DNA from: Acidimicrobiia bacterium
Lineage (GTDB): Bacteria > Actinomycetota > Acidimicrobiia > Spongiisociales > UBA5794
Direction of reading: 5' to 3'
DNA length: 64,000 nt
Assembly: GCA_041581135.1 (NCBI GenBank)
Contig: JBFGCM010000001.1
Span: 32,389 to 96,388, forward strand
Made by a program: the position numbers and the translations under genes. The notes under the pieces are model-generated. The model made no database searches, was not told where the DNA came from, and was given only the letters and a program-made list of their open reading frames with translations. The first letter of the stretch is position 1. Each line of letters opens with the position of its first letter. Below are positions 10,290-36,473 of the stretch, piece by piece.

Positions 10290-10718
10290 ATGCGGGTGCT
10301 CAGCGCCCTTCTCCGGCCGCGGCGGATCGCTCATGCCCATTGCGACCTGTTCTGTGGCGTCTATGACCCGGCCCAGGCGATGATCGAGGCCAAGTCCGTC
10401 CTCAACTGCTGCACCAAGTACGAGGCGTCCGACGACCCGGTGTTCCGGGATCGGTGCGTCGCCATCAAGGAAGAACGTGCCGAGCTCGTGAAGCATCACT
10501 TGTCCGTGTTGTGGACCGACTTCTTCAAGCCACACCACACCGAACCCTTCCCCAATCTGCACGACCTGTTCTGGCGTGCCATCAAGCAGGCCTCCGACGC
10601 CAAGAAGTCCATGGATCCTGCGGTGTCCCAGAAGCTCATCGACCTCGTCCAGGAGGTGTCGGATGTGTTCTGGCAGACCGACGAGTCCAAGAGCGCCGGC
10701 GTGTATCCGCCGGGCTGA
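10290..10718 (+). CDS. sodN: Nickel superoxide dismutase precursor
   Basis: The leader MRVLSALLRPRRIAHA is followed by the Ni-hook HCDLFCGVYDPAQA. ...RAELVKHHLSVLWTDFFKP matches the NiSOD four-helix core. GGGAGG precedes the ATG. Confidence 0.9.
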   Translation: MRVLSALLRPRRIAHAHCDLFCGVYDPAQAMIEAKSVLNCCTKYEASDDPVFRDRCVAIKEERAELVKHHLSVLWTDFFKPHHTEPFPNLHDLFWRAIKQASDAKKSMDPAVSQKLIDLVQEVSDVFWQTDESKSAGVYPPG

Positions 10719-20426: not shown

Positions 20427-21257
20427 TCACCGATCGCGTCTGAATCCGATCAACTCGATGGGTTGATCGCGGATCCACGCCACGAAGTCCGGGTCCATGA
20501 ACAGGTCGTACTCGGCGATGCGCCAGTCGGCGTCATTGGGGTGGACGGCTGAGATGTCGCCCGGGGCCGCGCAGTGCAACGAGAGGAACGTGGTGCCGTC
20601 TTCGGCTTCCGAGATGAGCCGCTCGAAGCTGGATCGAACCGGCGAGCCTTGGTGGCTGAGCCCCATCTCGAAGCGGTCGCCCACCGCCAGATCGGCTGCG
20701 GCAAGCCGCCGCCGCGCCTCCAGCACCCGCTCGATGTCGACGTCCTCCAGGTCGACGTCGTCGCAGTATCGCTCCATCGCAACCGGGAACAGCATGGGGA
20801 GGCCGTGGGCGATGGCCAGGTCCACCGTGTCGGCGACGAACTCGGGTGCCAGTGCGGCGCCCATGTGGTGGTCGAGATGCGTGACCTCGATCCCTGCGTC
20901 CACCGCCCTCGCAACTTGGGCGCGCAGCTCGGTGGCGACGGCCTCGGGATGGGCGTGGCGGCGCAGCTCGGTGGTGGTGCTCCACAGGTAGCCGTCGGTG
21001 TCGAAGAGTCCGGAGGCGACGGACGTGGTCGACAGCGGACGCCACCGGAAGGCCACTGACTCACTTGTCAACGCAAGGTGCACTCCGAGATCCAGGTCGG
21101 GGCGCCGGCGCGCCATGGCAGCCGCCTCCGGGAACCACGGGCTGGGAACGATCACCGAGCCCGAGACCTCGACGACGACGGCGGCCAGTTGCTCAATGGC
21201 GACGTTGGCGCCGTGGGCAGATGCCACGTCATCGACGTGGACGATCAGCTCTCGCAC
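20427..21257 (-). CDS. ChbG/YdjC-family carbohydrate deacetylase-like protein
   Basis: Contains LIVHVDDVASAHG and a HLDHHMG motif, typical of the YdjC fold. Confidence 0.65.
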   Translation of the reverse strand: MRELIVHVDDVASAHGANVAIEQLAAVVVEVSGSVIVPSPWFPEAAAMARRRPDLDLGVHLALTSESVAFRWRPLSTTSVASGLFDTDGYLWSTTTELRRHAHPEAVATELRAQVARAVDAGIEVTHLDHHMGAALAPEFVADTVDLAIAHGLPMLFPVAMERYCDDVDLEDVDIERVLEARRRLAAADLAVGDRFEMGLSHQGSPVRSSFERLISEAEDGTTFLSLHCAAPGDISAVHPNDADWRIAEYDLFMDPDFVAWIRDQPIELIGFRRDR

Positions 21258-21293
21258 GCGGCCGCGTCGTCTGTGTCGGCGAGCGACGGGCGC

Positions 21294-21539
21294 TCAGCCG
21301 GGAACGAGGAAGTCGTGGATCTTCTCGTTGGCGGCTTCCATCACTTGGAGGGCAAGGTCACCGAGTGCCCTGGCGATGGCCACTTCTTCTCCGATGACCG
21401 GCACGGGCCGATCGCTCGGGTTGCGTCGGGCCTTGCCCGTCGATTCGAAGTGATCGCCGCGTAGGAACAGCTCGGCACGAACCACCGTGTCGGTGTCGTC
21501 CTCCCAGATGTGGATCTCTACGTTGACGTCCGTCTCCAT
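21294..21539 (-). CDS. DUF1876 domain protein
   Basis: Trimmed to METDVNVEIHIWEDD, which is preceded by AAGGAGG. Contains GKARRNPSDRPVPVIGEEVAIARALGDLA, typical of DUF1876. Confidence 0.7.
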   Translation of the reverse strand: METDVNVEIHIWEDDTDTVVRAELFLRGDHFESTGKARRNPSDRPVPVIGEEVAIARALGDLALQVMEAANEKIHDFLVPG

Positions 21540-21633
21540 CTCGCCTCCTTGCCGGTCGCGCAAACGGGGCGTCTGCCCTCATGTTTCCCGGCTCCGACTG
21601 GCCATGCAAGGGGCATTTCGGCCCCATGGGGCC

Positions 21634-22365
21634 TCAGCGGCGGATCCGCAGCCGGCGCCGGAGTCGCTGCCACCGGGCCCGTCGCCCCGAGGGGAGGCCG
21701 GTCGAGCCCGGTGGTGGCGGTTGTGGCAGGACCCCGGGCGATGCTCCGATGTCGGCGGCCGGTAGGGCCTCATCTCGGGTATCTCCGGCGTCTTCGTCGG
21801 ACGTGGGGATGTCGGCGGAGGGCGCGTCAGGCGCCGATGGTGGGGTGGAAACGACCTCGGGCGTGATAGGCCGGCGAAGGGTGCTGAGCTGCTCGCGGAG
21901 GAACTGCACCTCCGTCTCCGCCTTGGCTGCTCGCTCCCGAGCCTCGGCGAGCTGTTGCCCTGCCTCGTGCAGGTTCCCAAGCTGGGTGAGCATGCGCTCC
22001 CACGCGTCGAGGGGGACGATCATCGTGCCTGGTGGGGGAGTGCCGGCCACGTCGTCGACGGGAGCGGTTGGGATTCGGCCCAGGCGCTCACCTCGGCTGC
22101 GGACCTCTGCCAGGGACACCATCCAGCGCCCGTCGATCACCTGGCCCGGGATCTTGCCCTTGCGAGCCCACGTGCGCACCGTGGACATCGGGATGCCGGT
22201 GGCCTCGTGGGCCTGTCGAATCGTCACCCACGTCGCCGGCGATGGGCTTCGGGTCGGTCCTTCGGTGGCACGCGCCGGAGGAGGCGGCGGCGGTACTGCC
22301 CGGCGGTGGCGCGCCAGCGTTTCGGCCTCCCAAACCAGTCCCGGGTCCCTCTCCACGTTCGGCAT
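21634..22365 (-). CDS. Helix-turn-helix (MerR/excisionase-type) DNA-binding protein with coiled-coil and Pro-rich tail
   Basis: The HTH is WVTIRQAHEATGIPMSTVRTWARKGKIPG. The gene is divergent from the BMC operon with a ~49-nt gap. Confidence 0.6.
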   Translation of the reverse strand: MPNVERDPGLVWEAETLARHRRAVPPPPPPARATEGPTRSPSPATWVTIRQAHEATGIPMSTVRTWARKGKIPGQVIDGRWMVSLAEVRSRGERLGRIPTAPVDDVAGTPPPGTMIVPLDAWERMLTQLGNLHEAGQQLAEARERAAKAETEVQFLREQLSTLRRPITPEVVSTPPSAPDAPSADIPTSDEDAGDTRDEALPAADIGASPGVLPQPPPPGSTGLPSGRRARWQRLRRRLRIRR

Positions 22366-22414
22366 GCTACGAGAGTGGCCGGCCCCTCGCTCTCTCTAGG
22401 ATGCGGCCGAGGAG

Positions 22415-23041
22415 TTGTGTGCACCAGTGACGCCTGAGCCAGTCGACATACCCCCGCCTGAGCCGTCGGAGGTGCGCGACCTGGTGCGGCGCATCGTCGA
22501 CGGGCTCTTGCAGGACGAGGCCGCTGCCGTGACGTCACCGCCGGCGCCGGAGGCTGAGCATGTGTCATCTTCGGTCCCGGGTCGGCTGCGGGTGGCGATC
22601 GGAGCCGACCACGGTGGGTACGCGATGAAGGAGCACCTGGCGTTCCGGCTCAGGGAGCGGGGCCACGATGTCTCGGACTGCGGCACGCACTCGACCGACG
22701 CCGTCGACTATCCGGACGTTGCGCTCGCCGTCGCCGAGTTGGTGGTGAGCGGAACATGCGACGTCGGCATCGTCGTCGACGGTGCCGGGATCGGGTCGGC
22801 GATGGCAGCCAACAAGGTCCCGGGAGTCCGGGCCGCACTGTGTTACGACCTGTCGACGGCCCGCAACAGCCGCGAACACAACCACGCTAACGTCCTCACC
22901 CTGGGCGCCGGCCTCATCGGCAATGGGCTGGCATGGCAGATCGTCGACGAGTGGCTGTCGGTGCCGTGGGGGGAAGGGCGGCATGCCAGGCGAGTGGCGA
23001 AGATCAGCGACATCGAGCGACGGTATGGCGGCAATGGATAG
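22415..23041 (+). CDS. RpiB/LacAB-family sugar-phosphate isomerase with ~55-aa N-terminal extension (BMC cargo candidate)
   Basis: The core is [11 protein letters not shown]...[17 protein letters not shown]...REHNHANVL. The extension contains [18 protein letters not shown]. The start is uncertain (TTG at 22415 or GTG at 22427). Confidence 0.85.
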
Positions 23042-23888
23042 GGAACAGCTCATCGAGGCCGTCACGCGAGAGGTGCTGTCCGTGCTCGCCGGCGGGACCG
23101 ACCCCTGTGCCCACTGCGAGGGCAGTTGTGCCGCCCACAGCTCGGACCGGGTGCGCACGGTGGTTGCCAACGGCGCCGACCGGGTCTCGTTCAACGGCAA
23201 CGCCGCCGACGTTCCGCTCGACCTGGCCAGGTACATCGACCACACGTTGCTCAAGCCCGACGCCACCGCCTCTCAGATCGACAAGCTGTGCGCCGAAGCA
23301 GTCGAATACGGGTTCGCCTCGGTGTGCGTCAACCCCACCTGGATCCGCCGGGCCGCCTCCAAGGTGCGCGGCAGCGACGTGAAGGTGTGCTCGGTGATCG
23401 GGTTCCCGTTGGGGGCCACCACGCCGGAGATCAAGGCCATGGAGACCCGCAAGGCGCTCCGTGACGGGGCGCGGGAGATCGACATGGTCATCAACATCGG
23501 CGCCCTCAAGTCCGGCGACGCCGACCTCGTACGTGCGGACATCGCCAAGGTCGCCGAGGCGTCTCATGAGGTGGGTGCCATCACCAAGGTCATCATCGAG
23601 GCGGGTCTGCTCACCGACTACGAGAAGGTGCTGGCCTGCGCCCTCGCCAAGCAGGGCAAGGCCGACTACGTGAAGACCTCGACCGGCTTCGGGGCGGGTG
23701 GTGCCACCGTCTACGACGTGGCTTTGATGCGGGAAACCGTCGGACCCGAGATGGGCGTGAAGGCGTCAGGTGGCGTCCGCACCACCGAGGAGGCAGAGGA
23801 GATGATCGCCGCGGGAGCAACCCGCATCGGCGCTTCCGCGGGAATCAGCATCGTGAGCGGAGAAGGAGCCGGTGATGAGCGACATTGA
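23025..23888 (+). CDS. deoC: Deoxyribose-phosphate aldolase with N-terminal extension (BMC cargo candidate)
   Basis: The DeoC core is [19 protein letters not shown] and the Schiff-base Lys context YVKTSTGFG. The N-terminus is M(AAM)[20 protein letters not shown] followed by CAHCEGSC. An alternative ATG is at 23034. The gene overlaps the rpiB-like stop. Confidence 0.9.
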
Positions 23889-24504
23889 TCTCAGGAGCTA
23901 CGCGTTCCTGGACAGCCTGCAGCCCCAGTACGCGGCATTCCTCGGCACTGTCGCCCAGGGATTCCTCCCACTGGCCGGGGACGCCTCGTTGTACGTCGAG
24001 GTGGCGCCGGGCATCGAGATCAACCGGCTCACCGATGTCGCGCTGAAGTCCACCAAGGTCAAGCCCGGGATGCAGATCGTCGAGCGCTACTACGGCATGC
24101 TGGAGATCCACTCACCTGACCAGCACGAGACCCGCGCCGCCGGTGAAGCGATCCTCGAGGCCATCGGGAAGACCGAGCCCGACCGGCTCAAGCCGCGGAT
24201 CCTCTCCAGCCAGGTGATACGGCGGGTCGATGACCACCAGACGCAGCTCATCAACCGGGTCCGCCACGGCAACATGCTCATACCGGGACAGACCTTCTAC
24301 GTCTTGGAGTGCGAGCCGGCGGCGTACGCCCCCCTCGCCGCCAACGAGGCAGAGAAGGCGGCCGACATCAACGTGCTCGAGGTGCGCGCCTTCGGCTCGA
24401 TGGGGCGGGTCTACCTCGGCGGCGAGGAACGCGACATCGATGTGGGATGGCGTGCCGCCGTCGCCGCGCTGGAAGGGCTCGAAGGCCGCGAAGCCAGCAA
24501 GTGA
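23875..24504 (+). CDS. BMC-T shell protein, tandem permuted BMC domains (CcmP/CsoS1D-like, double-stacking type)
   Basis: [53 protein letters not shown]...[24 protein letters not shown]...AANEAEKAA closely parallels CcmP as I remember it. Confidence 0.85.
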
Positions 24505-24547
24505 ACGACGAGAATCCACCAGAACGAGAGACAAAGGAGAAGCGTCA

Positions 24548-24850
24548 ATGGCAGAAGCCCTTGGGATGATCGAGACCCGCGGCTTCGCTGCGATGGTCGA
24601 GGCGTCCGATGCCATGGTCAAGGCAGCGAAGGTGGAGCTGGTCTCCTACGAGAAGACCGGCGGTGGGTATGTCACCTCGGTCGTCCGTGGCGATGTGGCA
24701 GCCGTCAAGGCGGCGGTCGACGCCGGCATTCGCAGCGCAGAGAAGGTGGGCGAGGTCATCTCCAGCCACGTCATCGCTCGGCCGCATCTCAACATCGACC
24801 TGGTGCTGCCACTGGGGCGGGCCGACGAGGCCCAAGCCGAGCTCGGCTAG
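24548..24850 (+). CDS. BMC-H hexameric shell protein (PduA/CcmK type)
   Basis: [57 protein letters not shown] is a canonical BMC domain. AAGGAG precedes the ATG. Confidence 0.95.
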
Positions 24851-24864
24851 ACGGACACCACGCC

Positions 24865-25152
24865 GTGCATCTGGGACGTGTCGCCGGCACGCTGGTTGCG
24901 AGCCGCAAAGACCCTCACATGGAGGGGATGACCTTTCTCGTCCTTCGCCAGTTGGACGTGGCCGCCGAGGAGACCGGCGGCTACGTGGTCGCGGTCGATG
25001 CCGTGGGAGCCGGTGTCGGAGAGGTGGTGATGTACGCCTCCGGTAGCTCGGCGCGCCAGACGGTGCTCACCAAGGACCGCCCGTGCGACGCGGTGATCAT
25101 GGCCATCGTGGACACGTGGGAGGTCGACGGGGACGAGGTCTACCGCAAGTGA
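24865..25152 (+). CDS. BMC-P pentameric vertex protein (EutN/CcmL family), copy 1
   Basis: (M)[30 protein letters not shown]...[14 protein letters not shown]...AIVD. The start is GTG. Confidence 0.9.
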
Positions 25153-26609
25153 AGATCGACGACCAGGAGATCCAAGCGATCATCGAGCGGGTCCGCAGCC
25201 GGCTCGGTGATGCCGAGGGGTCCTTGCGGCCCGCAGCCACCATGCGCGCCCAGTCACAGGTGGCGGCGTCGGCGGTGGAGTACGGCGACGGCATCCATCG
25301 GACGGTGGATGCTGCGGTGGCCGCCGCCGCCAGGGCGTTCGTCCACTACCGCGAAATGGGGTTGGAGAAGCGGCGCGAGATCATCGAATCCATCCGGCGC
25401 TCCATGTCCGACCACGGGGAGCAGCTGGCCTACATGGCTCACGCCGAGACCGGTCTGGGACGGCCGGAGGACAAGGCCGTGAAGAACCGGTTGGTGACCA
25501 CCAAGACCCCCGGACCCGAGGACCTGGAGCCTCAGGCCGTGACTGGAGATTCCGGGATGATGGTCACCGAGTTCGCCCCCTATGGCGTGATCGCGGCCAT
25601 CACGCCCACCACGAACCCCACGTCGACGATCATCAACAACACCATCGCCATCCTCTCGGCCGGCAACGCAGTCGTCTTCAACGTGCACCCCAATGCCAAG
25701 AGCGTGTCCGCCGAGAACGTGCGCCTGCTGAACCGAGCGATCGTCGCCGCCGGCGGGCCTGAGGATCTCGTAACGGCGATTCCCGACCCCACCATCGACA
25801 GCGCCAAGGCGGTGATGCACCATCCCGATGTGCGCCTGTTGCTCGTGACGGGTGGCCCCGGGGTGGTTCGCGAGGCGCTGAACACCGACAAGAAGGTGAT
25901 CGCCGCCGGGCCGGGCAATCCGCCGGCCGTGGTGGACCAGACCGCCGATGTGGAGCAAGCGGGTCGCGACATCGTGCGGGGCGCCTCGTTCGACAACAAC
26001 GTCATCTGCACCGACGAGAAGACCACGATCGCCGTCGATACGGTTGCCGACCGTCTCGTCCAGTCGATGGCGGCCAACGGCGGGTACCGCTTGAAGGAAC
26101 ACGAGATCAAGAAGCTGGAGCGCGTCATCTTCCGTGAGCTGGGCCCACCCAACAAGCCGGGGATGATCAACCCGGCCTGGATCGGCAAGAACGCCGGGGC
26201 GATCCTCGCCGAGATCGGCATCCAGGTGGACCGCGACGTGCGCCTCCTCATCGCCGAGGTGCCGGTGGAGCACAACCTGGTGTGGACCGAACAGATGATG
26301 CCGGTGATGCCGGTGGCCCGAGTCCAGAACGTGGACGACGCCATCTCGCTGGCGGTCCGCTCCGAACACGGATTCCGTCACACGGCCTCCATCCACTCGA
26401 CGAACGTCGACACCATCACCCGCATGGCGCGAGCCATGAACTGCTCGATCTTCGTGGCCAATGCTCCCAACTACGCCGGGCTCGGCGAGGGTGGTGAGGG
26501 CTTCACGTCGTTCTCCATCGCCAGCCCGACCGGTGAGGGACTCACCCGCCCGCGCTCGTTCTCCCGAGTGCGGCGCGTCTCGGTGGTTGGCGCCCTCCGG
26601 ATCGTGTAG
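25149..26609 (+). CDS. CoA-acylating aldehyde dehydrogenase (PduP/EutE-like) with N-terminal encapsulation-peptide-like helix
   Basis: GTG at 25149 overlaps the upstream stop (GTGA). The N-terminus is [20 protein letters not shown]. The core has [15 protein letters not shown], the catalytic Cys context [11 protein letters not shown], and [11 protein letters not shown]. Confidence 0.9.
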
Positions 26610-27205
26610 TGCCGCACCCGGCCGTCGCCCTGCTCGAGTTCTCGTCCGTAGCCCACGGCATCGCGGCGGGGGACGCCATGGTGAAGGCGGCCCCGGTCGG
26701 TGCGATCCACGCCGGGTCCGTCCAACCCGGGAAGTACCTCGTGCTGGTGGCCGGAGACACCGCCAGCGTGGCGACCGCCGTCGAGGCCGGGCAGGCGACG
26801 TCGGCGAGTGCCCACCTGGCGACGGTCTTCCTCCCGGACATTCACCCCGATGTCTCTGCTGCCATCAGGGGGAGCAGGGCCGACCCTGACGGAGAAGCAC
26901 TCGGCATCGTGGAGACGACCACCGTGAGCGACGCCATCGCCGCCGCCGACGCAGGGGTGAAGGGCGCTGCGGTCGTGCTTCACGCCATTCGCATGGCGGA
27001 CGGTCTCGGCGGCAAGGGGTATGCGTTGTTCGCCGGGCCGGTCGCCGAGGTGGAAGCCGCCATCGAGATCGGATCGGCCCGAGTGGCGCCCGATGTGCTC
27101 ATCGGCGCGGTGGTCGTGCCGCAGCTCCATGCCGAGATGGCCGCCAACGTGTGGACTGAGCCCCGCTTTCGCCGAGTCGTGGCGAGCCCGGACGAAGTCT
27201 CCTGA
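26609..27205 (+). CDS. BMC-T shell protein, tandem canonical BMC domains (PduT-like), no cysteines
   Basis: Two BMC domains are present: VALLEFSSVAHGIAAGDAMVKAAPV... and ALGIVETTTVSDAIAAADAGVKGAAV.... The start overlaps the AldDH stop by 1 nt. Confidence 0.85.
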   Translation: MPHPAVALLEFSSVAHGIAAGDAMVKAAPVGAIHAGSVQPGKYLVLVAGDTASVATAVEAGQATSASAHLATVFLPDIHPDVSAAIRGSRADPDGEALGIVETTTVSDAIAAADAGVKGAAVVLHAIRMADGLGGKGYALFAGPVAEVEAAIEIGSARVAPDVLIGAVVVPQLHAEMAANVWTEPRFRRVVASPDEVS

Positions 27206-27495
27206 TGCAGCTGGGACGCGTCACCGGGACGGTGGTGGCCACCGTGAAGACCCCCGGACTCGAAGGAGTCCGCTTCCTGGTGGTGCAACCCCTGGACCGC
27301 CGACGTCAGCCCTCCGGGGAAGCGGTGGTGGCGGCCGACGCGGTGCACATGGCCGGCCGAGGTGAGCTCGTGTACTTCGTGTCCTCCCGCGAGGCGGCCC
27401 AGGCGATGCCCGACACCTTCGTCCCGGTGGATCATGCCATCGTCGGCATCGTCGACGCCATCGAGTCCTCCGGTCACGGAGCAGAGCCGCTGTGA
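27205..27495 (+). CDS. BMC-P pentameric vertex protein (EutN/CcmL family), copy 2
   Basis: MQLGRVTGTVVATVKTPGLEGVRFLVVQPLD...AADAV...AIVGIVD. The ATG overlaps the upstream TGA. Confidence 0.9.
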   Translation: MQLGRVTGTVVATVKTPGLEGVRFLVVQPLDRRRQPSGEAVVAADAVHMAGRGELVYFVSSREAAQAMPDTFVPVDHAIVGIVDAIESSGHGAEPL

Positions 27496-27520
27496 GCCCG
27501 GTGCTATGGGGTGGCGGCCG

Positions 27521-27790
27521 ATGAAGGTGGCCCGGGTCGCCGGCACCGTGGTCTCCACCATCAAGGCGCCCGTGTTCGAAGCGCGCACACTCTTGTTGTG
27601 CGACCTGCTCGATGCTGACGGGGTTGCCGCCGGGTACGTCATCGCCCTCGACCTGGTGGGCGCCGGAGCGGGCGAGACCGTGCTCGTGCTGGACGAGGGC
27701 AGCTCGGCCCGCCAGCTGCTCGGCATGGAGGTGGCGCCCGTGCGCGCCGTCATCGTGGCCATTGTCGATCACGTCGAAGGCATGGGGTGA
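27521..27790 (+). CDS. BMC-P pentameric vertex protein (EutN/CcmL family), copy 3
   Basis: MKVARVAGTVVSTIKAPVFEARTLLLCDLLD...ALDLVGAGAGETVLV...AIVD. An alternative ATG is at 27506. Confidence 0.85.
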   Translation: MKVARVAGTVVSTIKAPVFEARTLLLCDLLDADGVAAGYVIALDLVGAGAGETVLVLDEGSSARQLLGMEVAPVRAVIVAIVDHVEGMG

Positions 27791-28191
27791 GCGGGCGGTC
27801 TCTACTCGCCGGGCTGCTCTTGGTGCTGGCGGCGTGTGACGGCGAGTCGATCGATGCTGCCAAGGTGGACACCTGTGACGATCTGCCTGCGGTGGGCATC
27901 GAGCTCGTGGAGCGCTACCTCGAAGCGCTCGAGGGCCAGCCCATCACGGTGCTCACCGGTCGGGAGCCTGCGCCTCCAGAGATCGAGGAGTTGGACGCGG
28001 CCGGCGCCACGCTGGACGCCCGGGCCGCCGCCCTGGGCTGTGACCCGGTGGCATTGAACGCTGCGGTGGTCGTCGGGATCTCGGATCTGGATACGGAAGA
28101 TCCGGCGGGTCGGCTGCTGCTCGAGCAAGTACGAGCCGGCGTCGATGCGCCGCTGCCGCCAACGCCCACGGAGCCGCCCGGCGACGGATGA
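27787..28191 (+). CDS. Small lipoprotein, unknown function
   Basis: GTG at 27787 overlaps the stop of the last BMC-P (GTGA). The lipobox is LLLVLAAC|DG. Confidence 0.55.
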   Translation: MSGRSLLAGLLLVLAACDGESIDAAKVDTCDDLPAVGIELVERYLEALEGQPITVLTGREPAPPEIEELDAAGATLDARAAALGCDPVALNAAVVVGISDLDTEDPAGRLLLEQVRAGVDAPLPPTPTEPPGDG

Positions 28192-28197
28192 CGCCCG

Positions 28198-28911
28198 TCA
28201 GCGCGGGGTGTTGGTGAGACGTGACGCCGCAGGCTCGTCCAGGAACCAGTGAGCGCGCGCCGCGCCGTCGATCACGCGCCCTGCCGGGAGATCCGCTTCC
28301 TGATCGAGGATGCGGTGTACCGCGTCTGCTTTCGCTTCACCTGAGACGATGAAGACGAGGTCTCGGGCGGCCCACAGCATCGGCAGCGTTGCCGTGAGCC
28401 GCCAGGCCATCTTGGACTCCACCCATGTCGCCACGTACGAGCGCTCCATCTCGGCCAACGCGTCCGTGCCCGGGAACAGCGAAGCCGTGTGGCCATCGTC
28501 GCCGAGTCCGAGGATGACGACGTCCGCCTGGGGTCGACCGTCCACCATCGGCATGAACGTCTCCAACCGCAGCTCGTAGGCGGCCGCAGCGTCGTGGGGA
28601 TCTCCCACGTGCCAGTCGGGTGCGTGGAGTCGCGACGGGATGTGGTCGACGAGCTCGCTCCTCGCCATGCCTGCGTTGGAGTCTTCGTGATGGCTCGGCA
28701 CCCATCGTTCGTCGCCGAGCCAGATGTCCACCTGGTCCCACGGCGCGTGTTCGCCACGTAGGGCGCGGTACGTGGCCCGCGGCGTCGCTCCTCCTGCCAG
28801 GCCCAGCGAGGCGGGGCGATTCAGATCGCGCAGCGTCCGCGACACGAACCCGGCCGCCTCGGTCGCCAGGAGCTGCGCAGTCGGGTAGATGGTGACGTCG
28901 ATGATCGGCAC
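28198..28911 (-). CDS. pgl: 6-phosphogluconolactonase
   Basis: Contains LGLAGGATP, WLGDERWVP and LGLGDDGHTASLFP, the motifs of the Pgl/NagB family. Confidence 0.85.
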   Translation of the reverse strand: MPIIDVTIYPTAQLLATEAAGFVSRTLRDLNRPASLGLAGGATPRATYRALRGEHAPWDQVDIWLGDERWVPSHHEDSNAGMARSELVDHIPSRLHAPDWHVGDPHDAAAAYELRLETFMPMVDGRPQADVVILGLGDDGHTASLFPGTDALAEMERSYVATWVESKMAWRLTATLPMLWAARDLVFIVSGEAKADAVHRILDQEADLPAGRVIDGAARAHWFLDEPAASRLTNTPR

Positions 28912-29101
28912 AGGCTATCGGCTTGCGTCACGCTCCACCGTATCGGGCCCCTGGGTCCTTCTCGATGACCACCAGGAGTGTCGCTGAATGTCTAGTCAGC
29001 TGCACAGAGTGGTTACTTGTGATACCGTTGGCGCGTCGCCTGTGGGGGCGATCGCGTCGGTGGCGACCGGCGGTAGACGAATCGATACAGGGGATGTGGC
29101 G

Positions 29102-29809
29102 ATGCAGCAGCTCACGCGCCGAGAGGCGCTCAAGCGCGGTGCGGTGGTCGCAGGCGGAGTCGCTTGGATGACCCCCGTGGTGCAGGCGGTAGGGATGACC
29201 TCGGCATTCGCTCAGGCCGTCTCTCCAGGATGCATTCAGTACGTGATCAACTTCCAGGTCGACGCCAACGCGATATCACTGCCGGCAGGCACCATCGTCG
29301 ACGAGCAGTGGGCGGCGTTCGGCATTCACTTCGAGTCGGGTTCGGCAACGCACCCGCTGATGATCTTCGACTCGTCGCTTCCGACCGGTGGCGATGTCGA
29401 CCTCGGCACGCCCCATGAGGACTTCGGTGGCCCGGGAGTCGGGGCTGGTGGAGCCTCCGGGCAGCCCGGCGAGAACTCGGTGGGGCTGGGCAACGTGTTG
29501 ATCATCTCCGAGGATGGCGACACCCTCGACCCTGATGACAATGCCGGCGGCGGTTCGATCATCGTGACGTTCGATGCCCCCACAGATGTCGAGTCCGTGC
29601 AGCTCCTGGACATCGATGGCGACGAAGTAGCCGGCACCATCACCACGTACGACGACAGCAACAGCGTGATCGATGCCATGGCAATTGCTGCGCTCGGGGA
29701 CAACAGCGTGCAGACGATCGACGTGGGTTCCACCGGCGTGAGCACACTCGAGATATTCCTCATCTCGAGTGGCGCAGTGCCTGCCATCACGGTCTGCCTC
29801 CCGCAGTAG
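29102..29809 (+). CDS. Tat-exported hypothetical protein
   Basis: MQQLTRREALKRGAVVAGGVAWMTPVVQAVGMTSAFAQA is a twin-arginine-type signal. The mature part is Gly/Asp-rich and has no recognisable domain. Confidence 0.6.
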   Translation: MQQLTRREALKRGAVVAGGVAWMTPVVQAVGMTSAFAQAVSPGCIQYVINFQVDANAISLPAGTIVDEQWAAFGIHFESGSATHPLMIFDSSLPTGGDVDLGTPHEDFGGPGVGAGGASGQPGENSVGLGNVLIISEDGDTLDPDDNAGGGSIIVTFDAPTDVESVQLLDIDGDEVAGTITTYDDSNSVIDAMAIAALGDNSVQTIDVGSTGVSTLEIFLISSGAVPAITVCLPQ

Positions 29810-31066: not shown

Positions 31067-31939
31067 TCAACCCTCGTGCCAGTACCTACCGGCTCGCACC
31101 TTGCCCTTGACGGTCTCGAGCACCCATGCCGAGCCCTTCTCCCACACCAGCCCGCCGTTCAGCGGGATGCCGGCATCGCCGAACTGTGCCAGGAGCTCGG
31201 CGATGAGTTGGCGGTGCGTGCACATCACGACGGTTCTGGCGCGGCTCTGCTTGATCAGCTTGAGTGCGTCGGCCGGCGTGGCATCCTCGGCCAGGGCCGC
31301 TTCCTGATCGATCTCGAGATGGAGCGCGGCGGCGATGGGATGGACGGTCTGGAGGCATCGAATGTAGGGACTCGAAGCGACCCGGGTGATGGGCACCGTG
31401 GACAGCAACTTGCGCACTCGTTTGGCCTGGATCTTGCCCTTCTTGCTGAGCGGGCGCTGGTGATCGTCTCCCTTCCAGTCGCGGCGGGTGCCGGCGTGTG
31501 CGTGACGTACCAGGTACACCCGGCCGCTGTCGGGATTGGCGAGTTGGTTGGCGGCTCGTCCCAGCACGGCGCGATCCAGTGGATGGGTGAGCAGGGTGGC
31601 GGCATCGAACGCAGGGAGCCATCGGACCTCGTCGACCTCGCTGTTGGGGGTGAACGTGCCGTCCTTCGGTTCCATGAGCCAGTACCGCACGACCTTGCGG
31701 TTGTCCGCCGGGGTCACATAGGACACGGTGCCGAGCTTCGTCCCGACATCACACTTGAAGCCGGTCTCTTCGAGCACCTCGCGTTTGGCCGCCTGTTTGA
31801 ACGTCTCCCCGGCGTCGAGCTTGCCCTTGGGGAGCGACCAGTCGTCGTAGCGGGGGCGATGCACCAGCAAGAATTCCTGCTTGCCGTCGGATCGGACGCG
31901 ATGGACCACGCCGCCGGCGGCGACAACGGTTGACTCCAC
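31067..31939 (-). CDS. mutT1: NUDIX hydrolase fused to histidine-phosphatase (SixA-like) domain, MutT1-type
   Basis: The Nudix box is GKLDAGETFKQAAKREVLEETG. The C-terminal half has LVRHAHAG, an RHG-type histidine phosphatase motif. The gene sits directly downstream of ppk1, as in mycobacteria. Confidence 0.8.
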   Translation of the reverse strand: MESTVVAAGGVVHRVRSDGKQEFLLVHRPRYDDWSLPKGKLDAGETFKQAAKREVLEETGFKCDVGTKLGTVSYVTPADNRKVVRYWLMEPKDGTFTPNSEVDEVRWLPAFDAATLLTHPLDRAVLGRAANQLANPDSGRVYLVRHAHAGTRRDWKGDDHQRPLSKKGKIQAKRVRKLLSTVPITRVASSPYIRCLQTVHPIAAALHLEIDQEAALAEDATPADALKLIKQSRARTVVMCTHRQLIAELLAQFGDAGIPLNGGLVWEKGSAWVLETVKGKVRAGRYWHEG

Positions 31940-34075
31940 TCATTCCCTCCCGACGCGGTCGAGTGCCATGGCCTGGAGCGTGTCGTGCGCGTTGATGTTG
32001 CGGAGGTTCTCGGCGCGGGTCCAATCGCCGTCGGTGCCGAGCTCCCACGCCAGGACGTCGTCTTCCAGGCAGACGTGGAGGATCTCCTCCAGCCGCTGCT
32101 GCAGTCGGGGATCCACCACCGGTACGAGCGCCTCGACCCGGCCGTCGAGATTGCGCGGCATCATGTCTGCCGAGCCGATGTAGTACACGGCCTGCCCGAC
32201 CTTCCCGAAGCGGTACACGCGGCTGTGTTCGAGGAAGCGCCCGACGATGGAGCGCACCTGGATGTCCCCCGTGCCGGGCAATGCCCCGGGGCGGAGGCAG
32301 CAGATGCCACGGATGATCAGGTCCACCCTGCAGCCGGCTTGAGCGGCGGCGTAGAGCTCGTCGATGATGTCCGAATCGACCAGATGGTTGGCCTTCATGA
32401 CGATGTGACCGTCGCTGCCCTTGGCTGCCTCGTCCCGGATGCGCTCGGTGATCCGGGTGCGCAATGAGGCCGGCGCCACCAGCAGCCGGTTGTAGTTCGC
32501 TCCCTGGCTGAAGCCGGTCAATTCGTTGAACAACAGCGAGAGATCGGCGCCGATGAGTGGGTCGGCGGTGTACAAGCCGAGGTCTTCGTAGATGCGTGCG
32601 GTATTCGGGTTGTAGTTGCCGGTCCCGATGTGGGCATAGCGACGGATCCCGTCGCTCTCCCGGCGCACCACGAGCAGGATCTTCGAGTGGGTCTTGAGTC
32701 CGGTGACGCCGTACACCACGTGGACCCCGGCGGCCTCCAGCATTCGCGCCCACTGGATGTTGGCCTCCTCGTCGAACCGGGCTTTCAGCTCGACGAGTAC
32801 CACCACTTGCTTGCCGGCCTGAGATGCCTCGATGAGCGACCGGACGATGGCCTCTTCACCACCCAGTGCCGGGTCGGCGGGGATCGAGGTGCGATACAGC
32901 GTCTGTTTGATCGCGAGCACGTCTGGATCGGTTGCTGCTTGGGCCAGGAACGCCCCGGTCGAGGTGGCGAACGACTCATAGGGATGGTGCACGAACACGT
33001 CACCGTTGCGAATGACCTCGAACATGTCGACATCGCCGGTGCCACCGCCGAGCCGTTGCGGCGTCACCGGTGTCCAGACCGGAGCCTTGAGCTCTGGCCG
33101 ATCGAGGGCGTGGAGACCCCAGAGGGCGTCCAGTCCGAGCAAGGACTCGGAGCGGTAGACGTCCCTCGGTTCGAGCTGGAGCTGGCTGGTGAGCAGGTTG
33201 GAGACGTGATCGGTCATGTCCGGGCCTACCTCGAGCCGGACCGCCGCCGCGAACCGCTGTCGGAACAACAGCACCGATTCCATGGCCTCGAGCAGGTCGC
33301 CGGCTTCTTCTTCCTCCACCGCCAGGTCGGCGTTGCGGGTGACGCGGAAGATGTAGTGCGCCACGATCTGGCGGCCGGGGAACAGGCGGTCGACATGGGC
33401 GGCGATCACCTGTTCCAAGGGCACGAAGGTGTGCCCGTCACCCACTTGCACGAAGCGATCGAGGATCTGGGGCACCTTCACCCTGGCGAAGCGGGTGGAG
33501 GACCGATCACTGTCGTGCACCACGACGGCCAGGTTCATGGACAGGTTGGAGATGTAGGGGAATGGGTGGGAGGGATCGACCGCCAGGGGCGTGAGCACAG
33601 GGAAGATGTCTCGGTCGAACACCTCGCCGAGGTGGGCCTTGTCCGTCTCGTTCAGCTCAACCCAATCGGCCACCACGATGCCTTCAGCGGCGAGTCCCGG
33701 GCGAACCTCCTTGGCCCACACGTTGTCCATGCGTTGGGTGATGGCGTCGCACTGGTCACGGATGATGTCGATGAGCTCCCGCGGATGGATGCCGTCCGGT
33801 CCGGCAGTGCCGACGCCGGACTTCAACTGCTCCTTGAGGCCGGCGACCCGCACCTGGAAGAACTCGTCGATGTTCTGGCTGACGATGGCGAGGAACTTGG
33901 AGCGCTCGAGCAGCGGCAACCGGTCGCTCTCGGCGAGCGCCAGCACCCGCTCTTGGAAATCGAGCAACGACAACTCACGATTGGTGTACGCGGCGGTCAC
34001 GAGTACCGGACATGGTACCGGTAACGAGTCGAGCGTGGTCAGGTTGCGGCGCGCGCCGGCATACGCTGGGGGCAT
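31940..34075 (-). CDS. ppk: Polyphosphate kinase 1
   Basis: Contains NRELSLLDFQERVLALA, KFLAIVSQNIDEFFQVRV and two PLD-like C-terminal domains. The ATG at 34075 abuts the divergent DUF427 start, so GTG at 34000 is an alternative start. Confidence 0.9.
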   Translation of the reverse strand: MPPAYAGARRNLTTLDSLPVPCPVLVTAAYTNRELSLLDFQERVLALAESDRLPLLERSKFLAIVSQNIDEFFQVRVAGLKEQLKSGVGTAGPDGIHPRELIDIIRDQCDAITQRMDNVWAKEVRPGLAAEGIVVADWVELNETDKAHLGEVFDRDIFPVLTPLAVDPSHPFPYISNLSMNLAVVVHDSDRSSTRFARVKVPQILDRFVQVGDGHTFVPLEQVIAAHVDRLFPGRQIVAHYIFRVTRNADLAVEEEEAGDLLEAMESVLLFRQRFAAAVRLEVGPDMTDHVSNLLTSQLQLEPRDVYRSESLLGLDALWGLHALDRPELKAPVWTPVTPQRLGGGTGDVDMFEVIRNGDVFVHHPYESFATSTGAFLAQAATDPDVLAIKQTLYRTSIPADPALGGEEAIVRSLIEASQAGKQVVVLVELKARFDEEANIQWARMLEAAGVHVVYGVTGLKTHSKILLVVRRESDGIRRYAHIGTGNYNPNTARIYEDLGLYTADPLIGADLSLLFNELTGFSQGANYNRLLVAPASLRTRITERIRDEAAKGSDGHIVMKANHLVDSDIIDELYAAAQAGCRVDLIIRGICCLRPGALPGTGDIQVRSIVGRFLEHSRVYRFGKVGQAVYYIGSADMMPRNLDGRVEALVPVVDPRLQQRLEEILHVCLEDDVLAWELGTDGDWTRAENLRNINAHDTLQAMALDRVGRE

Positions 34076-35416: not shown

Positions 35417-35866
35417 TCACATTCTGTTCTGCTCGAGATCCAGCACCTTGTCCAAGCGCCGCTGATGACGCTCCTCGCCGGTGAAGGACGCCTTCACGAA
35501 CGAGGACACGATCTCGCGAGCCAGCTCCGAGCCGATCACCCGGCTGCCCACGGCGATCACATTGGCGTCGTCGTGTTCCACGGCCTGGTGTGCGGTGTAG
35601 GTGTCGTGGGCGACGGCGGCGCGGATGCCGGTGAGCTTGTTGGCCGCGATGGAGGCGCCGGCTCCCGAACCACACACGACGATGCCACGATCGGCACGTC
35701 CGGACACCACGGCCCTGCCGACTGCGGCGGCGTAGTCGGGGTAGTCGACGGGGTCTGTCGATGTGGTGCCCAGGTCGATCACGGCGACACCCTCCGCCGC
35801 GAGATGCTCCTTCAGATCCTCTTTCAGCTCGAAGCCGGCGTGATCCGCTCCGATGGCAACTCGCAC
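35417..35866 (-). CDS. rpiB: Ribose-5-phosphate isomerase B (housekeeping copy)
   Basis: GTG at 35866 is preceded by GGGAGGA. Contains [12 protein letters not shown] and GIVVCGSGAGASIAANK, which retains the catalytic Cys. There is no N-terminal extension. Confidence 0.9.
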   Translation of the reverse strand: MRVAIGADHAGFELKEDLKEHLAAEGVAVIDLGTTSTDPVDYPDYAAAVGRAVVSGRADRGIVVCGSGAGASIAANKLTGIRAAVAHDTYTAHQAVEHDDANVIAVGSRVIGSELAREIVSSFVKASFTGEERHQRRLDKVLDLEQNRM

Positions 35867-35966
35867 TGATCCTCCCGTCGAGGGATTGGCCGCGTTCGAT
35901 GGCCAGGGTAACCGCATGCGGGGCGTCGCCAGCGCTTCGCAGCAGCGGCCCGTGGCTAGCCTCCAC

Positions 35967-36473
35967 ATGGTGCGTCGCTTCCTCGTCCTGCTGCTGGGTT
36001 TCGCCGTTGCATGCAGCTCCGGCGTCACCGCGCCTCCCGTCGGAGAGCTGGCCACGGTGTGCGCCGATCAGTTCTGCGTGTCCTATCCCGACGACTGGGA
36101 CGCGGAACCCGGCGAGACGTTCGTGACCTTCTCCCATCCGTCGGATCCCGTGACGGTGGTGGCCTCGGCCAGCGGCGTCGACATGGCCGGTGTCATGCGG
36201 GCCGGCGGAGAGCCGTGGCCGGCGCCACCCGACAGAGTGGTGCGCACGTTCTGGCGCCTCTTGGACGAGGGAGGCTCGGCCGGACTTGGCGACATCGAGA
36301 CCCGTGACGATGGGTCCGTGGCATCGGAGGGAAGCTTCGATTCCGGGCGCCTGTGGACCCGCATGATCCCGGTGGAGGGTCCCGATGCCGTCGGCATCGA
36401 GGTGCGGGCACCGAATGGCTCATGGGCAGACCACGCCGCCGCGTTCCTCGACGGCTTCACCATCCTCCCATGA
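35967..36473 (+). CDS. Lipoprotein, unknown function
   Basis: Trimmed to MVRRFLVLLLGFAVAC|SSG. Confidence 0.6.
   Translation: MVRRFLVLLLGFAVACSSGVTAPPVGELATVCADQFCVSYPDDWDAEPGETFVTFSHPSDPVTVVASASGVDMAGVMRAGGEPWPAPPDRVVRTFWRLLDEGGSAGLGDIETRDDGSVASEGSFDSGRLWTRMIPVEGPDAVGIEVRAPNGSWADHAAAFLDGFTILP

Follow-up and report, generated by a model that had tools for sequence, protein, structure and literature searches.

A nine-gene SPU3-type microcompartment operon that probably processes deoxyribose-5-phosphate in an Acidimicrobiia-like actinobacterium

The nine-gene operon at 22415-27790 of the window, as we call the whole 64-kb stretch of DNA that was analysed, probably (at a rough probability of 0.78) encodes a catabolic bacterial microcompartment (BMC, metabolosome) of the SPU3 subtype in an Acidimicrobiia-like actinobacterium. 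Its substrate would be 2-deoxyribose-5-phosphate (dR5P), most likely derived from DNA. The type has been catalogued before and in part characterised, so the operon is an additional member of it and not a new kind. An earlier note on this DNA had proposed an SPU-type metabolosome, and this class is supported, in agreement with Sutter et al. 2021 and Dwyer, Sutter and Kerfeld 2024 (PMC11585597). The nine same-strand genes that it listed are also present in a public annotation made independently for the same contig, and its description of the junctions as mostly overlapping was correct: of the eight, five are overlaps (17, 14, 4, 1 and 1 nt) and three are short gaps (43, 14 and 25 nt). The genes and their immediate neighbours are as follows.

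21634..22365, minus strand: candidate regulator, 243 aa, divergent; HTH_17/MerR-like HTH at aa 46-89, then a predicted coiled coil
22415 (or GTG 22427)-23041, plus strand: RpiB-like protein, 208 aa (204 aa from 22427); PF02502, E=2.8e-52
23025-23888, plus strand: DERA/DeoC, 287 aa; TIGR00126 deoC, 282 bits (cutoff 117)
23875-24504, plus strand: BMC-Tdp, CcmP-like, 209 aa; NCBIfam CcmP, 333.6 bits (cutoff 340)
24548-24850, plus strand: BMC-H, 100 aa; PF00936, E=2.8e-30
24865-25152, plus strand: BMC-P P1, 95 aa; PF03319, E=1.2e-27
25149-26609, plus strand: AldDH, CoA-acylating, EutE/PduP type, 486 aa; NF011927, 623 bits
26609-27205, plus strand: BMC-Ts, PduT-like fold, 198 aa; two PF00936 domains, E=4e-28
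27205-27495, plus strand: BMC-P P2, 96 aa; PF03319, E=1.8e-26
27521 (or ATG 27506)-27790, plus strand: BMC-P P3, 89 aa (94 aa from 27506; 89 aa in the public gene call); PF03319, E=2.8e-21
27787..28191, plus strand: lipoprotein-like ORF, 134 aa; signal peptide and LAAC lipobox

As predicted from these genes, the shell set is complete, with one BMC-H, one CcmP-like BMC-Tdp, one Cys-free BMC-Ts and three BMC-P paralogues, and the claim of six shell genes is thus borne out. When the Pfam BMC and EutN HMMs were applied, as had been suggested, five of the shell ORFs were positive and the CcmP-like BMC-T was not (PF00936, 19.8 bits; gathering cutoff 24.5). Despite this sub-cutoff score, the identity of the BMC-Tdp is settled by its match to PF27545 (CsoS1D_N), its NCBIfam CcmP score and its match to the solved CcmP 4HT5 (E=4.9e-84, 63.5% identity over 203 residues). 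It also matches 5LSR and the Haliangium ochraceum (HO) BMC-T2/T3 structures 5V76/5V74, and is of the double-stacking tandem-domain trimer type with Glu70-Arg71 where CcmP has its gating pair. Length and the pore Glu-Arg pair are likewise shared with CcmP of the beta-carboxysome; the context differs, however, because the present Tdp lies in a catabolic aldehyde-processing locus, and its score is just under the NCBIfam equivalog cutoff. The other BMC-T had been called PduT-like, which holds for the fold but not for the Fe-S ligand: this single-layer tandem-domain trimer has no Cys at all, Gln39 is at the position of PduT Cys38 in the alignment to 3N79, and TIGR02526 gives 98.8 bits, far under its cutoff of 250. 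BMC-H carries the interface motifs KAAK (aa 25-28) and ARPH (aa 77-80) and the pore loop K-T-G-G-G-Y (aa 36-41). P2, which is adjoined by P3, is a distinct paralogue because its identity is only 46% with P1 and 38% with P3.

The closest solved relatives of the shell parts are components of the HO model shell, plus CcmP. The nearest structures to BMC-H and P1 are HO BMC-H 5DJB (E=1.3e-41) and the HO BMC-P in 5V74 (E=3.3e-31), and HO proteins are among the top matches of the Tdp and among the matches of the Ts. The HO shell has the same inventory of H, Ts, Tdp and three P (PDB 5V74, 5DJB, 5V76, 5DIH), and HO and SPU are noted as related in the BMC catalogue (Sutter 2021). It differs in having two Tdp paralogues and a main locus without DERA and RPI.

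The predicted DERA is the signature enzyme, and its catalytic residues are intact: it aligns with the solved DERA 8QPS (E=2.3e-84), and the motifs eiD153mvin, yvK217tstg and gvK246asgg are invariant in alignment A1. Its N-terminal extension of ~64 aa consists of a helix (aa 6-21, nt 23040-23087; also helical in the AF2 model), a Cys-rich segment and a conserved 12-residue segment. The Cys-rich segment, C28-x2-C31-x3-C35-x2-H38 (CxxCxxxCxxH, nt 23106-23138), is not in the SPU3 descriptions compared (Sutter 2021; Dwyer 2024 main text), and the motif has no mention in the main text of the latter (PMC11585597); AF2 pLDDT is <50 at residues 27-37. The catalytic residues of the predicted acylating AldDH are intact as well, with the nucleophile Cys287 aligned with the active-site Cys of R. 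palustris PduP 5JFL (E=2.4e-130). This protein carries an N-terminal EP-like helix (aa ~5-19, nt 25161-25205) and a linker, the helix being kept across sister loci, and has no C-terminal extension, ending at the family-typical ...GALRIV. The RpiB-like protein also carries an N-terminal EP-like amphipathic helix (aa ~16-33, nt 22460-22513), followed by a Pro/Ala-rich linker, and one of its segments, of 14 residues, has the hydrophobic-moment maximum of the entire protein. Each of the three predicted cargo proteins therefore has an N-terminal amphipathic helix and linker of the encapsulation-peptide (EP) type; in sister loci the EP-like helices are retained, with variable linkers after them.

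The route proposed earlier, from dR5P through glyceraldehyde-3-phosphate and acetaldehyde to acetyl-CoA, is supported and coincides with the published SPU model (Sutter 2021; Dwyer 2024). Cytosolic deoxynucleosides would be converted to dR5P, which would enter the shell via the pore of BMC-H or Tdp and be split by DERA; the glyceraldehyde-3-phosphate would be exported to glycolysis, and the acetaldehyde would be captured by AldDH, with NAD+ and CoA, to give acetyl-CoA. PTAC, alcohol dehydrogenase and PduS were not found in the 64-kb window, so that acetyl-CoA/CoA and NADH/NAD+ would have to pass between shell and cytosol, for which the gated Tdp pore of ~14 Å is the most plausible route. Two points count against this reading: without a cofactor-recycling enzyme the classic metabolosome core is incomplete, and no genes for dR5P supply (deoA/B/D/K, nucleoside transporter) were found among the scanned ORFs of the window. 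EUT/PDU metabolosomes likewise trap an aldehyde by means of an acylating AldDH that bears an N-terminal EP, but their signature enzyme is a B12-dependent lyase or dehydratase, whereas that of the present locus is an aldolase; the locus differs from them also in the three missing proteins, in the presence of a Tdp and in a PduT-like trimer without Fe-S Cys.

The reactions of DERA and acylating AldDH are reversible, which, together with the lack of catabolic deo genes in the window, would suit an acetaldehyde sink or a synthetic direction (DERA forming dR5P from acetaldehyde and glyceraldehyde-3-phosphate, or AldDH acting reductively) instead of DNA-sugar catabolism. We give this only the slightest chance, as the metabolosome paradigm and the EutE/PduP AldDH family are catabolic, an acetaldehyde-producing enzyme is absent from the locus, and sister loci have nucleoside-catabolic neighbours and a DeoR-type regulator. 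Among those with the same gene order, a SorC-family regulator (B. subtilis DeoR belongs to this family) is found in L010, L012 and L049, L011 has an NCS1 nucleobase permease immediately 3′ of P3, and near L009 there is a pyrimidine nucleoside phosphorylase. The presence of these genes beside the loci indicates deoxynucleoside catabolism.

The RpiB-like protein had been taken for an RpiB-family isomerase; the family assignment stands (PF02502), but the isomerase does not, because Asp122 and Ala124 replace the catalytic Cys and Thr. This Asp122-Gly-Ala124 site was found by alignment to C. thermocellum RpiB 3HE8. D122 and A124 are present in 59/59 BMC-linked RpiB homologues, in agreement with Dwyer 2024 (PMC11585597), and the catalytic Cys is retained in the housekeeping RpiB 7.5 kb off, as in the housekeeping paralogues. 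In the 59 BMC-linked copies, which are otherwise 36-75% identical, D65, H66, H155, N156, R189, H190 and R193 and the D-G-A-G-I-G-S loop are at least 95% conserved. Judged from these residues, the protein keeps a sugar-phosphate pocket in which Asp/Ala have replaced the catalytic Cys/Thr, and it is probably not a ribose-5-phosphate isomerase; most likely it would be a packaging partner that binds DERA.

In SPU6, purified DERA is active on dR5P, RPI has negligible ribose-5-phosphate isomerase activity, and the two form a stable 1:1 complex that does not improve DERA kinetics (PMC11585597). RPI-DERA fusions are also known (PMC11585597). Conservation of the pocket against such low overall identity argues for a selected pocket and is hard to reconcile with a protein that serves as a scaffold alone, which counts against the packaging reading and favours the same organelle with a different or broader substrate. 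In that case the RpiB-like protein, its chemistry altered and Asp serving as base, would catalyse a reaction or bind a ligand as a subunit. It could open or anomerise the dR5P furanose to feed DERA, or act on triose phosphates or a rare sugar phosphate. The fusions and the stable complex point the same way, and other sugar phosphates are left possible by Dwyer 2024 (PMC11585597). Nevertheless, we consider this unlikely, given the negligible activity and the lack of a kinetic gain in SPU6, the entire absence of RPI from SPU5 loci (Sutter 2021), and the missing C2 hydroxyl of dR5P, which makes its aldose-ketose isomerisation impossible.

The statement in the earlier note that no SPU member has been characterised is outdated, as enzymes were studied by Dwyer 2024 (PMC11585597) and an SPU-type shell from Asgard archaea was reconstituted in a 2025 preprint (PMC12747264). 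Three points from the SPU literature compared nevertheless count against the dR5P reading: the compartment is nowhere observed in its natural hosts, growth on deoxyribose or DNA is linked to no phenotype, and the enzyme biochemistry comes solely from a different subtype, SPU6 (Chloroflexi bacterium GWB2_54_36). The SPU6 BMC shares with the present locus a DERA N-terminal extension (~65-70 aa) with conserved catalytic Asp/Lys/Lys, an RPI with N-terminal EP, Cys-to-Asp and retained His, the BMC-P triplet, a Tdp, and the lack of PTAC and PduS (PMC11585597). It differs in a C-terminal EP on an AldDH of the other major branch (~30-35% identical to the present AldDH), a 'blue-clade' Tdp (~50% identity), the lack of BMC-Ts, a GntR regulator and the gene order, RpiB-DERA-P-AldDH-H-Tdp-P-P.

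Comparison with the published BMC catalogue, as the earlier note had recommended, was made with the verbal description of the 31 SPU3 loci (Sutter et al. 2021, Nat Commun, Supplementary Data 2); by description, all points match in gene content, gene order, EP positions and shell set, and no defining feature differs. Shared are the enzymes AldDH, pf02502 and pf01791, with pf02502 upstream of pf01791, the N-terminal EP on AldDH and also on DERA, one BMC-H, three BMC-P of which two are adjacent, a CcmP-like BMC-Tdp, and a BMC-Ts without a PduS partner or pore Cys. RPI and DERA are fused in 12-20 SPU3 loci, whereas the present locus encodes them separately. The listed host phyla include Actinobacteria, Chloroflexi and Acidobacteria, and the catalogued SPU3 proteins include a 210-aa CcmP-like Tdp from Actinobacteria bacterium RBG_16_68_12 (Sutter 2021). 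SPU ranks among the commonest BMC types in the catalogue, its >280 loci coming from 26 phyla.

Among 80 related loci, 16 complete and 9 contig-truncated ones have the same nine-gene order and come from Acidimicrobiia, Chloroflexia and Thermoanaerobaculia. One gene order in three phyla implies horizontal transfer, so that a cryptic or decaying acquired locus, which this organism would not express or whose shells would house no functional pathway, has to be weighed; the lack of dR5P-supply and cofactor-recycling genes nearby would fit, as would the lack of a detected sigma-70-like promoter, with a scanner ill-suited to actinobacterial promoters. This is highly unlikely, because all nine ORFs are intact with conserved catalytic and interface motifs, the GC content of the operon is that of its flanks, and third-position GC is host-like. 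In addition, Tdp homologues of 84-89% identity form >100 clusters, mainly from Acidimicrobiia, and the flanks are syntenic with those of L004; both observations indicate long vertical maintenance. Close Tdp homologues number thousands in public metagenomes.

No terminator-like sites were found on the plus strand within the cluster, in a scan that was overall at chance level. The lipoprotein-like ORF, which overlaps the P3 stop codon by 4 nt and has no Pfam or NCBIfam match, is probably co-transcribed with the operon. It does not count as BMC cargo, and whether it belongs to the BMC system is doubtful; it is missing from most sister loci, and L004 has a weak homologue in the same position (26% identity, pairwise E=1e-10). 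On the other side, the candidate regulator matches Pfam HTH_17 just under the cutoff (E=6.5e-06). Its homologues (41-48% identity) occupy the same divergent position in the Acidimicrobiia loci L001, L004, L005 and L007, and we infer that this HTH protein regulates the operon.

The earlier note had proposed nine co-directional genes at 22415-27790, and this was borne out, on the forward strand, by the ORF coordinates and HMM scans.

Genes of the nine-gene bacterial microcompartment (BMC) operon and their family matches
22415 (or 22427)-23041, +, RpiB-like protein; PF02502, E=2.8e-52
23025-23888, +, deoxyribose-phosphate aldolase (DERA, DeoC); TIGR00126, 282 bits against a cutoff of 117; PF01791, E=6.1e-15
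23875-24504, +, tandem-domain double-stacking trimer (BMC-Tdp); NCBIfam beta-carboxysome CcmP model, 333.6 bits against a cutoff of 340
24548-24850, +, hexamer (BMC-H); PF00936, E=2.8e-30
24865-25152, +, pentamer (BMC-P, P1); PF03319
25149-26609, +, EutE/PduP-type CoA-acylating aldehyde dehydrogenase (AldDH); NF011927, 623 bits
26609-27205, +, second tandem BMC protein, single-layer trimer (BMC-Ts); two PF00936 domains
27205-27495, +, pentamer (BMC-P, P2); PF03319
27521-27790, +, pentamer (BMC-P, P3), adjoining P2; PF03319

Adjacent genes overlap at five of the eight junctions (by 17, 14, 4, 1 and 1 nt), and three are gaps of 43, 14 and 25 nt. An identical contig with public gene calls (NCBI GCA_041611855.1, JBFIMF010000003.1) shows the same gene set. 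No sigma-70-like promoter was found in 21200-29200 with a scanner ill suited to actinobacterial promoters, and terminator-like sites occurred at chance level in the same scan.

A pfam01791 DeoC/DERA, the signature enzyme of sugar-phosphate-utilising (SPU) loci, is encoded among the shell genes, between those for the RpiB-like protein and the Tdp, and the general SPU features are all present (pfam01791 DERA with an extension, pfam00171 AldDH, pfam02502 protein with a Cys-to-Asp change, and a BMC-P triplet). Seven SPU subtypes are described in the BMC locus catalogue, and for SPU3 the description lists an N-terminal encapsulation peptide (EP) on the AldDH, pfam02502 followed by pfam01791, a CcmP-like BMC-Tdp, and a BMC-Ts that has neither a pore cysteine nor a PduS homologue alongside it, with hosts including Actinobacteria, Chloroflexi and Acidobacteria (Sutter 2021). 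The Tdp tree of the catalogue also holds a 210-aa SPU3 "ccmPlike" Tdp from Actinobacteria bacterium RBG_16_68_12 (Sutter 2021). All SPU3 features listed in the catalogue text were found in the operon. The metabolosome class given in the earlier note, SPU, was thus upheld, and the match to the written subtype description, together with the SPU3 Actinobacteria entry in the Tdp tree, argues for assignment of the operon to SPU3.

Membership of SPU6 was ruled out. SPU6 loci have a C-terminal EP, an AldDH on the EUT2/3-GRM1/2 branch and no BMC-Ts, and are found only in Chloroflexi, whereas here the EP is N-terminal, a BMC-Ts is present and the host is actinobacterial; identity between the AldDH of the operon and those of SPU6-order loci is only 30-35%. 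SPU2 was ruled out as well. Loci of that subtype carry a fourth BMC-P in addition to the triplet, their Ts usually has a pore Cys, and they belong to Bacteroidetes, Spirochaetes or candidate phyla, whereas the operon has three BMC-P only and a Ts without Cys. The AldDH of the operon can be aligned over its full length to R. palustris PduP (5JFL, E=2.4e-130), with the nucleophile Cys287 in place. A conserved 16-residue helix and a variable linker stand ahead of its core, and its C-terminus is family-normal (...GALRIV) without an extension, so that the predicted EP is N-terminal and not C-terminal.

When the six shell ORFs were compared with the BMC and EutN HMMs, which the earlier note expected all of them to match, five passed, whereas the CcmP-like Tdp reached only 19.8 bits, below the PF00936 gathering threshold of 24.5. 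This low Pfam score was not taken to speak against a shell function, since three other lines lead to a CcmP-like protein. From its 63.5% identity to the solved CcmP structure (E=4.9e-84) and the presence of the PF27545 CsoS1D_N family, we judge the Tdp to be a shell protein despite the sub-threshold PF00936 score, with an identity that is beyond doubt. [quoted passage not shown] Glu70-Arg71 of the Tdp lie at the position of what we take to be the gating pair of CcmP and CsoS1D. A carboxysome reading, prompted by the CcmP-like protein, was rejected because the locus has no RuBisCO, carbonic anhydrase or CcmM/N/CsoS2. Most close Tdp homologues in public databases are annotated as "hypothetical protein" and score too low for the gathering threshold of the Pfam BMC model, indicating that automated annotation under-reports this shell component.

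The BMC-H is the one single-domain PF00936 protein of the locus, with KAAK at 25-28 and ARPH at 77-80; compared with the catalogue standard KAAK/PRPH, the first Pro is replaced by Ala. Its nearest solved structure is the H. ochraceum BMC-H 5DJB (E=1.3e-41), and that of P1 is the HO BMC-P in the 5V74 shell. The three PF03319 BMC-P paralogues are 38-48% identical to one another, and P2 and P3 adjoin. The BMC-Ts had been called PduT-like, a description that held for the fold, since its structure matches are PduT variants with HO T1 (5DIH) further down the list, and failed for the Fe-S pore cysteine. In PduT, an Fe-S BMC-T, Cys38 ligates a 4Fe-4S cluster, whereas the BMC-Ts contains zero Cys and has Gln39 at that position; its score against TIGR02526 (98.8 bits) is far under the cutoff of 250. 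The shell inventory of H, Ts, Tdp and three P parallels that of the HO model shell. The HO shell is a closed icosahedral particle of about 40 nm.

The first gene of the operon had been described as an RpiB-family isomerase. The family (PF02502) was confirmed, and TIGR01120 rpiB was matched at 147.0 bits, above its cutoff of 138.65, so that the HMM alone would call the protein RpiB, but the isomerase label probably does not hold. In the alignment to C. thermocellum RpiB 3HE8 (54% identity), the catalytic Cys is replaced by Asp122 and the Thr by Ala124, while His155 is kept; the base of a functional E. coli-type RpiB, the Cys66/Thr68 pair, is missing in this alignment, and Ser128 of the GIGS loop stands where, presumably, the M. 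tuberculosis-type Glu75 would fall. The same D and A were found in 59/59 DERA-adjacent homologues of related loci (L001-L080, fetched from species-representative genomes with the DERA of the operon as query), and Cys is kept in three non-BMC RpiB paralogues. One of these three is at 35417-36055 (-), 7.5 kb from the operon, with the catalytic Cys in the motif GIVVCGSGAG, and showed no convincing encapsulation helix; it is apparently the housekeeping copy and allows the Asp122/Ala124 variant to be compared with a control from the same genome.

In the BMC-linked copies, the pocket residues D65, H66, H155, N156, R189, H190 and R193 and the DGAGIGS loop are at least 95% conserved, a degree of conservation that would not be expected of a pure scaffold. 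The N-terminus of the RpiB-like protein contains the most amphipathic 14-residue window of the entire sequence, and a Pro/Ala-rich linker that varies in length comes after it, the classic layout of an encapsulation peptide. According to Dwyer 2024, the Cys-to-Asp change occurs in all SPU RPIs, and R5P isomerase activity is negligible in the SPU6 RPI, which joins DERA in an approximately 1:1 complex (PMC11585597). Our survey of 59 loci bears out and extends the observation of the Cys-to-Asp change, pointing to a protein that has lost the catalytic base and kept the binding pocket.

The DERA core is 60-70% identical to solved short DERAs (8QPS, 5DBU), and its catalytic Asp/Lys/Lys motifs D153, K217 and K246 are invariant in a 60-sequence alignment. 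Ahead of the DeoC core is an N-terminal extension of about 64 residues, which is absent from the housekeeping DeoC of L061-L080. It consists of an amphipathic helix (aa 6-21 in the AF2 model), a Cys-rich segment and a conserved 12-residue segment. From the catalytic residues and the EP-like helices, activity of DERA on 2-deoxyribose-5-phosphate (dR5P) and encapsulation of the cargo are predicted. The Cys-rich segment, C28-A-H-C31-E-G-S-C35-A-A-H38 (23106-23138), lies between the EP-like helix and the DERA core and is a possible small metal site. Of the 120 closest protein clusters, 77 retain its pattern, C-x2-C-x3-C-x2-H, and 43 have it deleted or cut down to one or two Cys. In the extension, the pattern reads CxxCxxxCxxxC in Chloroflexia loci that share the gene order and Cx3Cx4Cx3C in SPU6-order loci, so four-Cys versions occur in Chloroflexi of both gene orders. 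In the AF2 model of the full-length DERA, pLDDT is below 50 over the Cys-rich segment, and the model therefore gives no metal-site geometry. The main text of Dwyer 2024 ties cysteine only to the RPI and makes no mention of a Cys motif in the DERA extension (PMC11585597).

The conserved pocket of the RpiB-like protein and the Cys/His segment of DERA raise the question of whether these two cargo features are functional or vestigial. We consider it unlikely, at roughly one chance in seven, that both are functional. On that reading, the RpiB-like protein could be an active partner of DERA, for example in dR5P ring-opening as an anomerase or in triose-phosphate handling, instead of a dead scaffold, and the Cys/His segment could bind a metal or Fe-S centre that aids assembly or redox/cofactor balance. 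If true, such a centre would matter since the compartment has no PduS, Fe-S BMC-T, PTAC or alcohol dehydrogenase.

For the pathway as a whole, the earlier note had proposed cleavage of dR5P followed by conversion of acetaldehyde to acetyl-CoA, which agrees with the published SPU scheme. By analogy with that scheme, dR5P would enter the shell, DERA would split it into G3P and acetaldehyde, and AldDH would convert the acetaldehyde to acetyl-CoA. The mechanism proposed for the operon is thus the one already published for SPU loci and is not new. The canonical metabolosome core recycles CoA and NAD+ by PTAC and alcohol dehydrogenase, whereas neither PTAC (pfam06130/pfam01515) nor an alcohol dehydrogenase was found in the locus or the scanned window ORFs, and PduS-type families and deo genes were likewise not found among these ORFs (about 55, from a heuristic, non-exhaustive list, with the rest of the genome outside the search). 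With no PTAC, alcohol dehydrogenase or PduS found in the window, CoA and NAD+ would have to exchange with the cytosol. The lack of PTAC and alcohol dehydrogenase is typical of SPU3 in the subtype text (Sutter 2021), and Dwyer 2024 states that a Tdp is typical of SPU loci without PTAC and that acetyl-CoA could cross its large gated pore (PMC11585597).

Genes near the related loci gave indirect support for the published scheme. SorC-family (PF04198) sugar-binding regulators are found immediately upstream of three loci of the same nine-gene order (L010, 8315-9376; L012, 8381-9379; L049, 8333-9331); L013 has a TetR regulator instead. B. subtilis DeoR, which responds to dR5P as its effector, belongs to the SorC family. 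An NCS1 cytosine/purine/uracil permease directly follows P3 in L011 (14821-16281), and a pyrimidine nucleoside phosphorylase is located about 1.6 kb downstream in L009 (16553-17884). The neighbours in the window (a GFO/IDH/MocA oxidoreductase, YdjC, an Rv2632c-like protein, a 6-phosphogluconolactonase-family protein, an alpha/beta-hydrolase, a NUDIX-phosphatase and polyphosphate kinase) are all unrelated to nucleoside catabolism.

A likely local regulator is the divergent 243-aa protein at 21634-22365 (-), which has an HTH_17/MerR-like domain and a coiled coil and is kept upstream in four Acidimicrobiia loci (L001, L004, L005 and L007). The public 184-aa call truncates the HTH, and the longer start is therefore more likely correct. 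Only about 50-60 bp separate it from the RpiB-like start, and an inverted-repeat search of the 61-bp divergent intergenic region gave short GC palindromes only and no convincing operator. At the other end, a 134-aa lipoprotein-like ORF (27787-28191, +) overlaps the P3 stop by 4 nt. It has a signal peptide and a LAAC lipobox without a family match, and a weak homologue occupies the same position in one other Acidimicrobiia locus, L004 (14813-15199; 26% identity, pairwise E=1e-10). The protein encoded by the ORF at 27787-28191 is probably exported, which would exclude it from the cargo. Its identification with the "EutQ-like ~130-aa protein" of SPU6 was rejected, considering the signal peptide, the lipobox and the absence of similarity to ORFs of SPU6-order loci.

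The DERA scan of species-representative genomes gave 80 loci; Acidimicrobiia MAGs are nearest (69-77% identity), and Chloroflexia and Thermoanaerobaculia come next. The complete order RpiB-DERA-Tdp-H-P-AldDH-Ts-P-P was observed in 16 of the 80, with the same order cut by a contig end in 9 more; about 20, from Anaerolineae, have the SPU6 order RpiB-DERA-P-AldDH-H-Tdp-P-P, and in 20 a housekeeping DeoC stands alone and lacks the N-terminal extension. With the Tdp as query, at least 7,956 proteins were retrieved at E<=1e-40. Tdp clusters with 84-89% identity to that of the operon number more than 100, and the named ones are largely Acidimicrobiia, indicating that the system is common in this class.

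The alpha/beta-hydrolase, NUDIX-phosphatase and polyphosphate kinase genes of the flanks are shared with L004, which points to vertical maintenance, and the same gene order across phyla points to older horizontal transfer. In the window, the NUDIX hydrolase-histidine-phosphatase fusion (31067-31939, -) adjoins polyphosphate kinase 1 (31940-34075, -); this pair follows the BMC locus in L004 too, indicating conserved flanking synteny within Acidimicrobiia. A nickel superoxide dismutase (10290-10718, +) and a MurJ flippase (10765-12345, -) lie elsewhere in the window and directly downstream of the BMC operon in L002; relatives thus differ by rearrangement of this neighbourhood.

Few bacterial organelles are as widespread as SPU compartments, enzyme data exist for SPU6 only, and we know of no SPU compartment studied in its native host. 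The class was defined in 2014 from eight loci and had grown by 2021 to more than 280 loci in 26 phyla (Sutter 2021); the curated list of Dwyer 2024 holds 206 (PMC11585597). The statement in the earlier note that no SPU member had been characterised is outdated, as the first biochemistry appeared in 2024 (Dwyer 2024, PMC11585597) and a 2025 preprint describes self-assembling SPU-type shells from Hodarchaeales, where DERA is often fused to a flavoprotein domain (PMC12747264). The gains of the present analysis are modest: correction of this novelty claim, a subtype assignment, extension of the RpiB observation over 59 loci, the DERA Cys/His motif, and a demonstration that public annotation is poor. 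The operon represents SPU3 in compact and complete form in Acidimicrobiia, a class of environmental actinobacteria that is abundant and seldom cultured; its nine genes could be used as a minimal template for heterologous reconstitution, and it illustrates how environmental actinobacteria may recycle DNA-derived deoxyribose.

Two further ORFs of the window combine several domains. The one at 60677-62305 (-), near the end of the window, contains the phage tail-sheath domains PF04984 and PF17482 with a C-terminal AAA ATPase match, and may be part of a prophage or contractile injection system; the apparent fusion may represent two adjacent genes merged by the heuristic ORF call. The other (5111-7984, +) encodes a 957-aa superfamily-1 helicase (AAA_11/AAA_12) with a C-terminal REase_MTES_1575-like nuclease, an architecture often found in defence or repair proteins.
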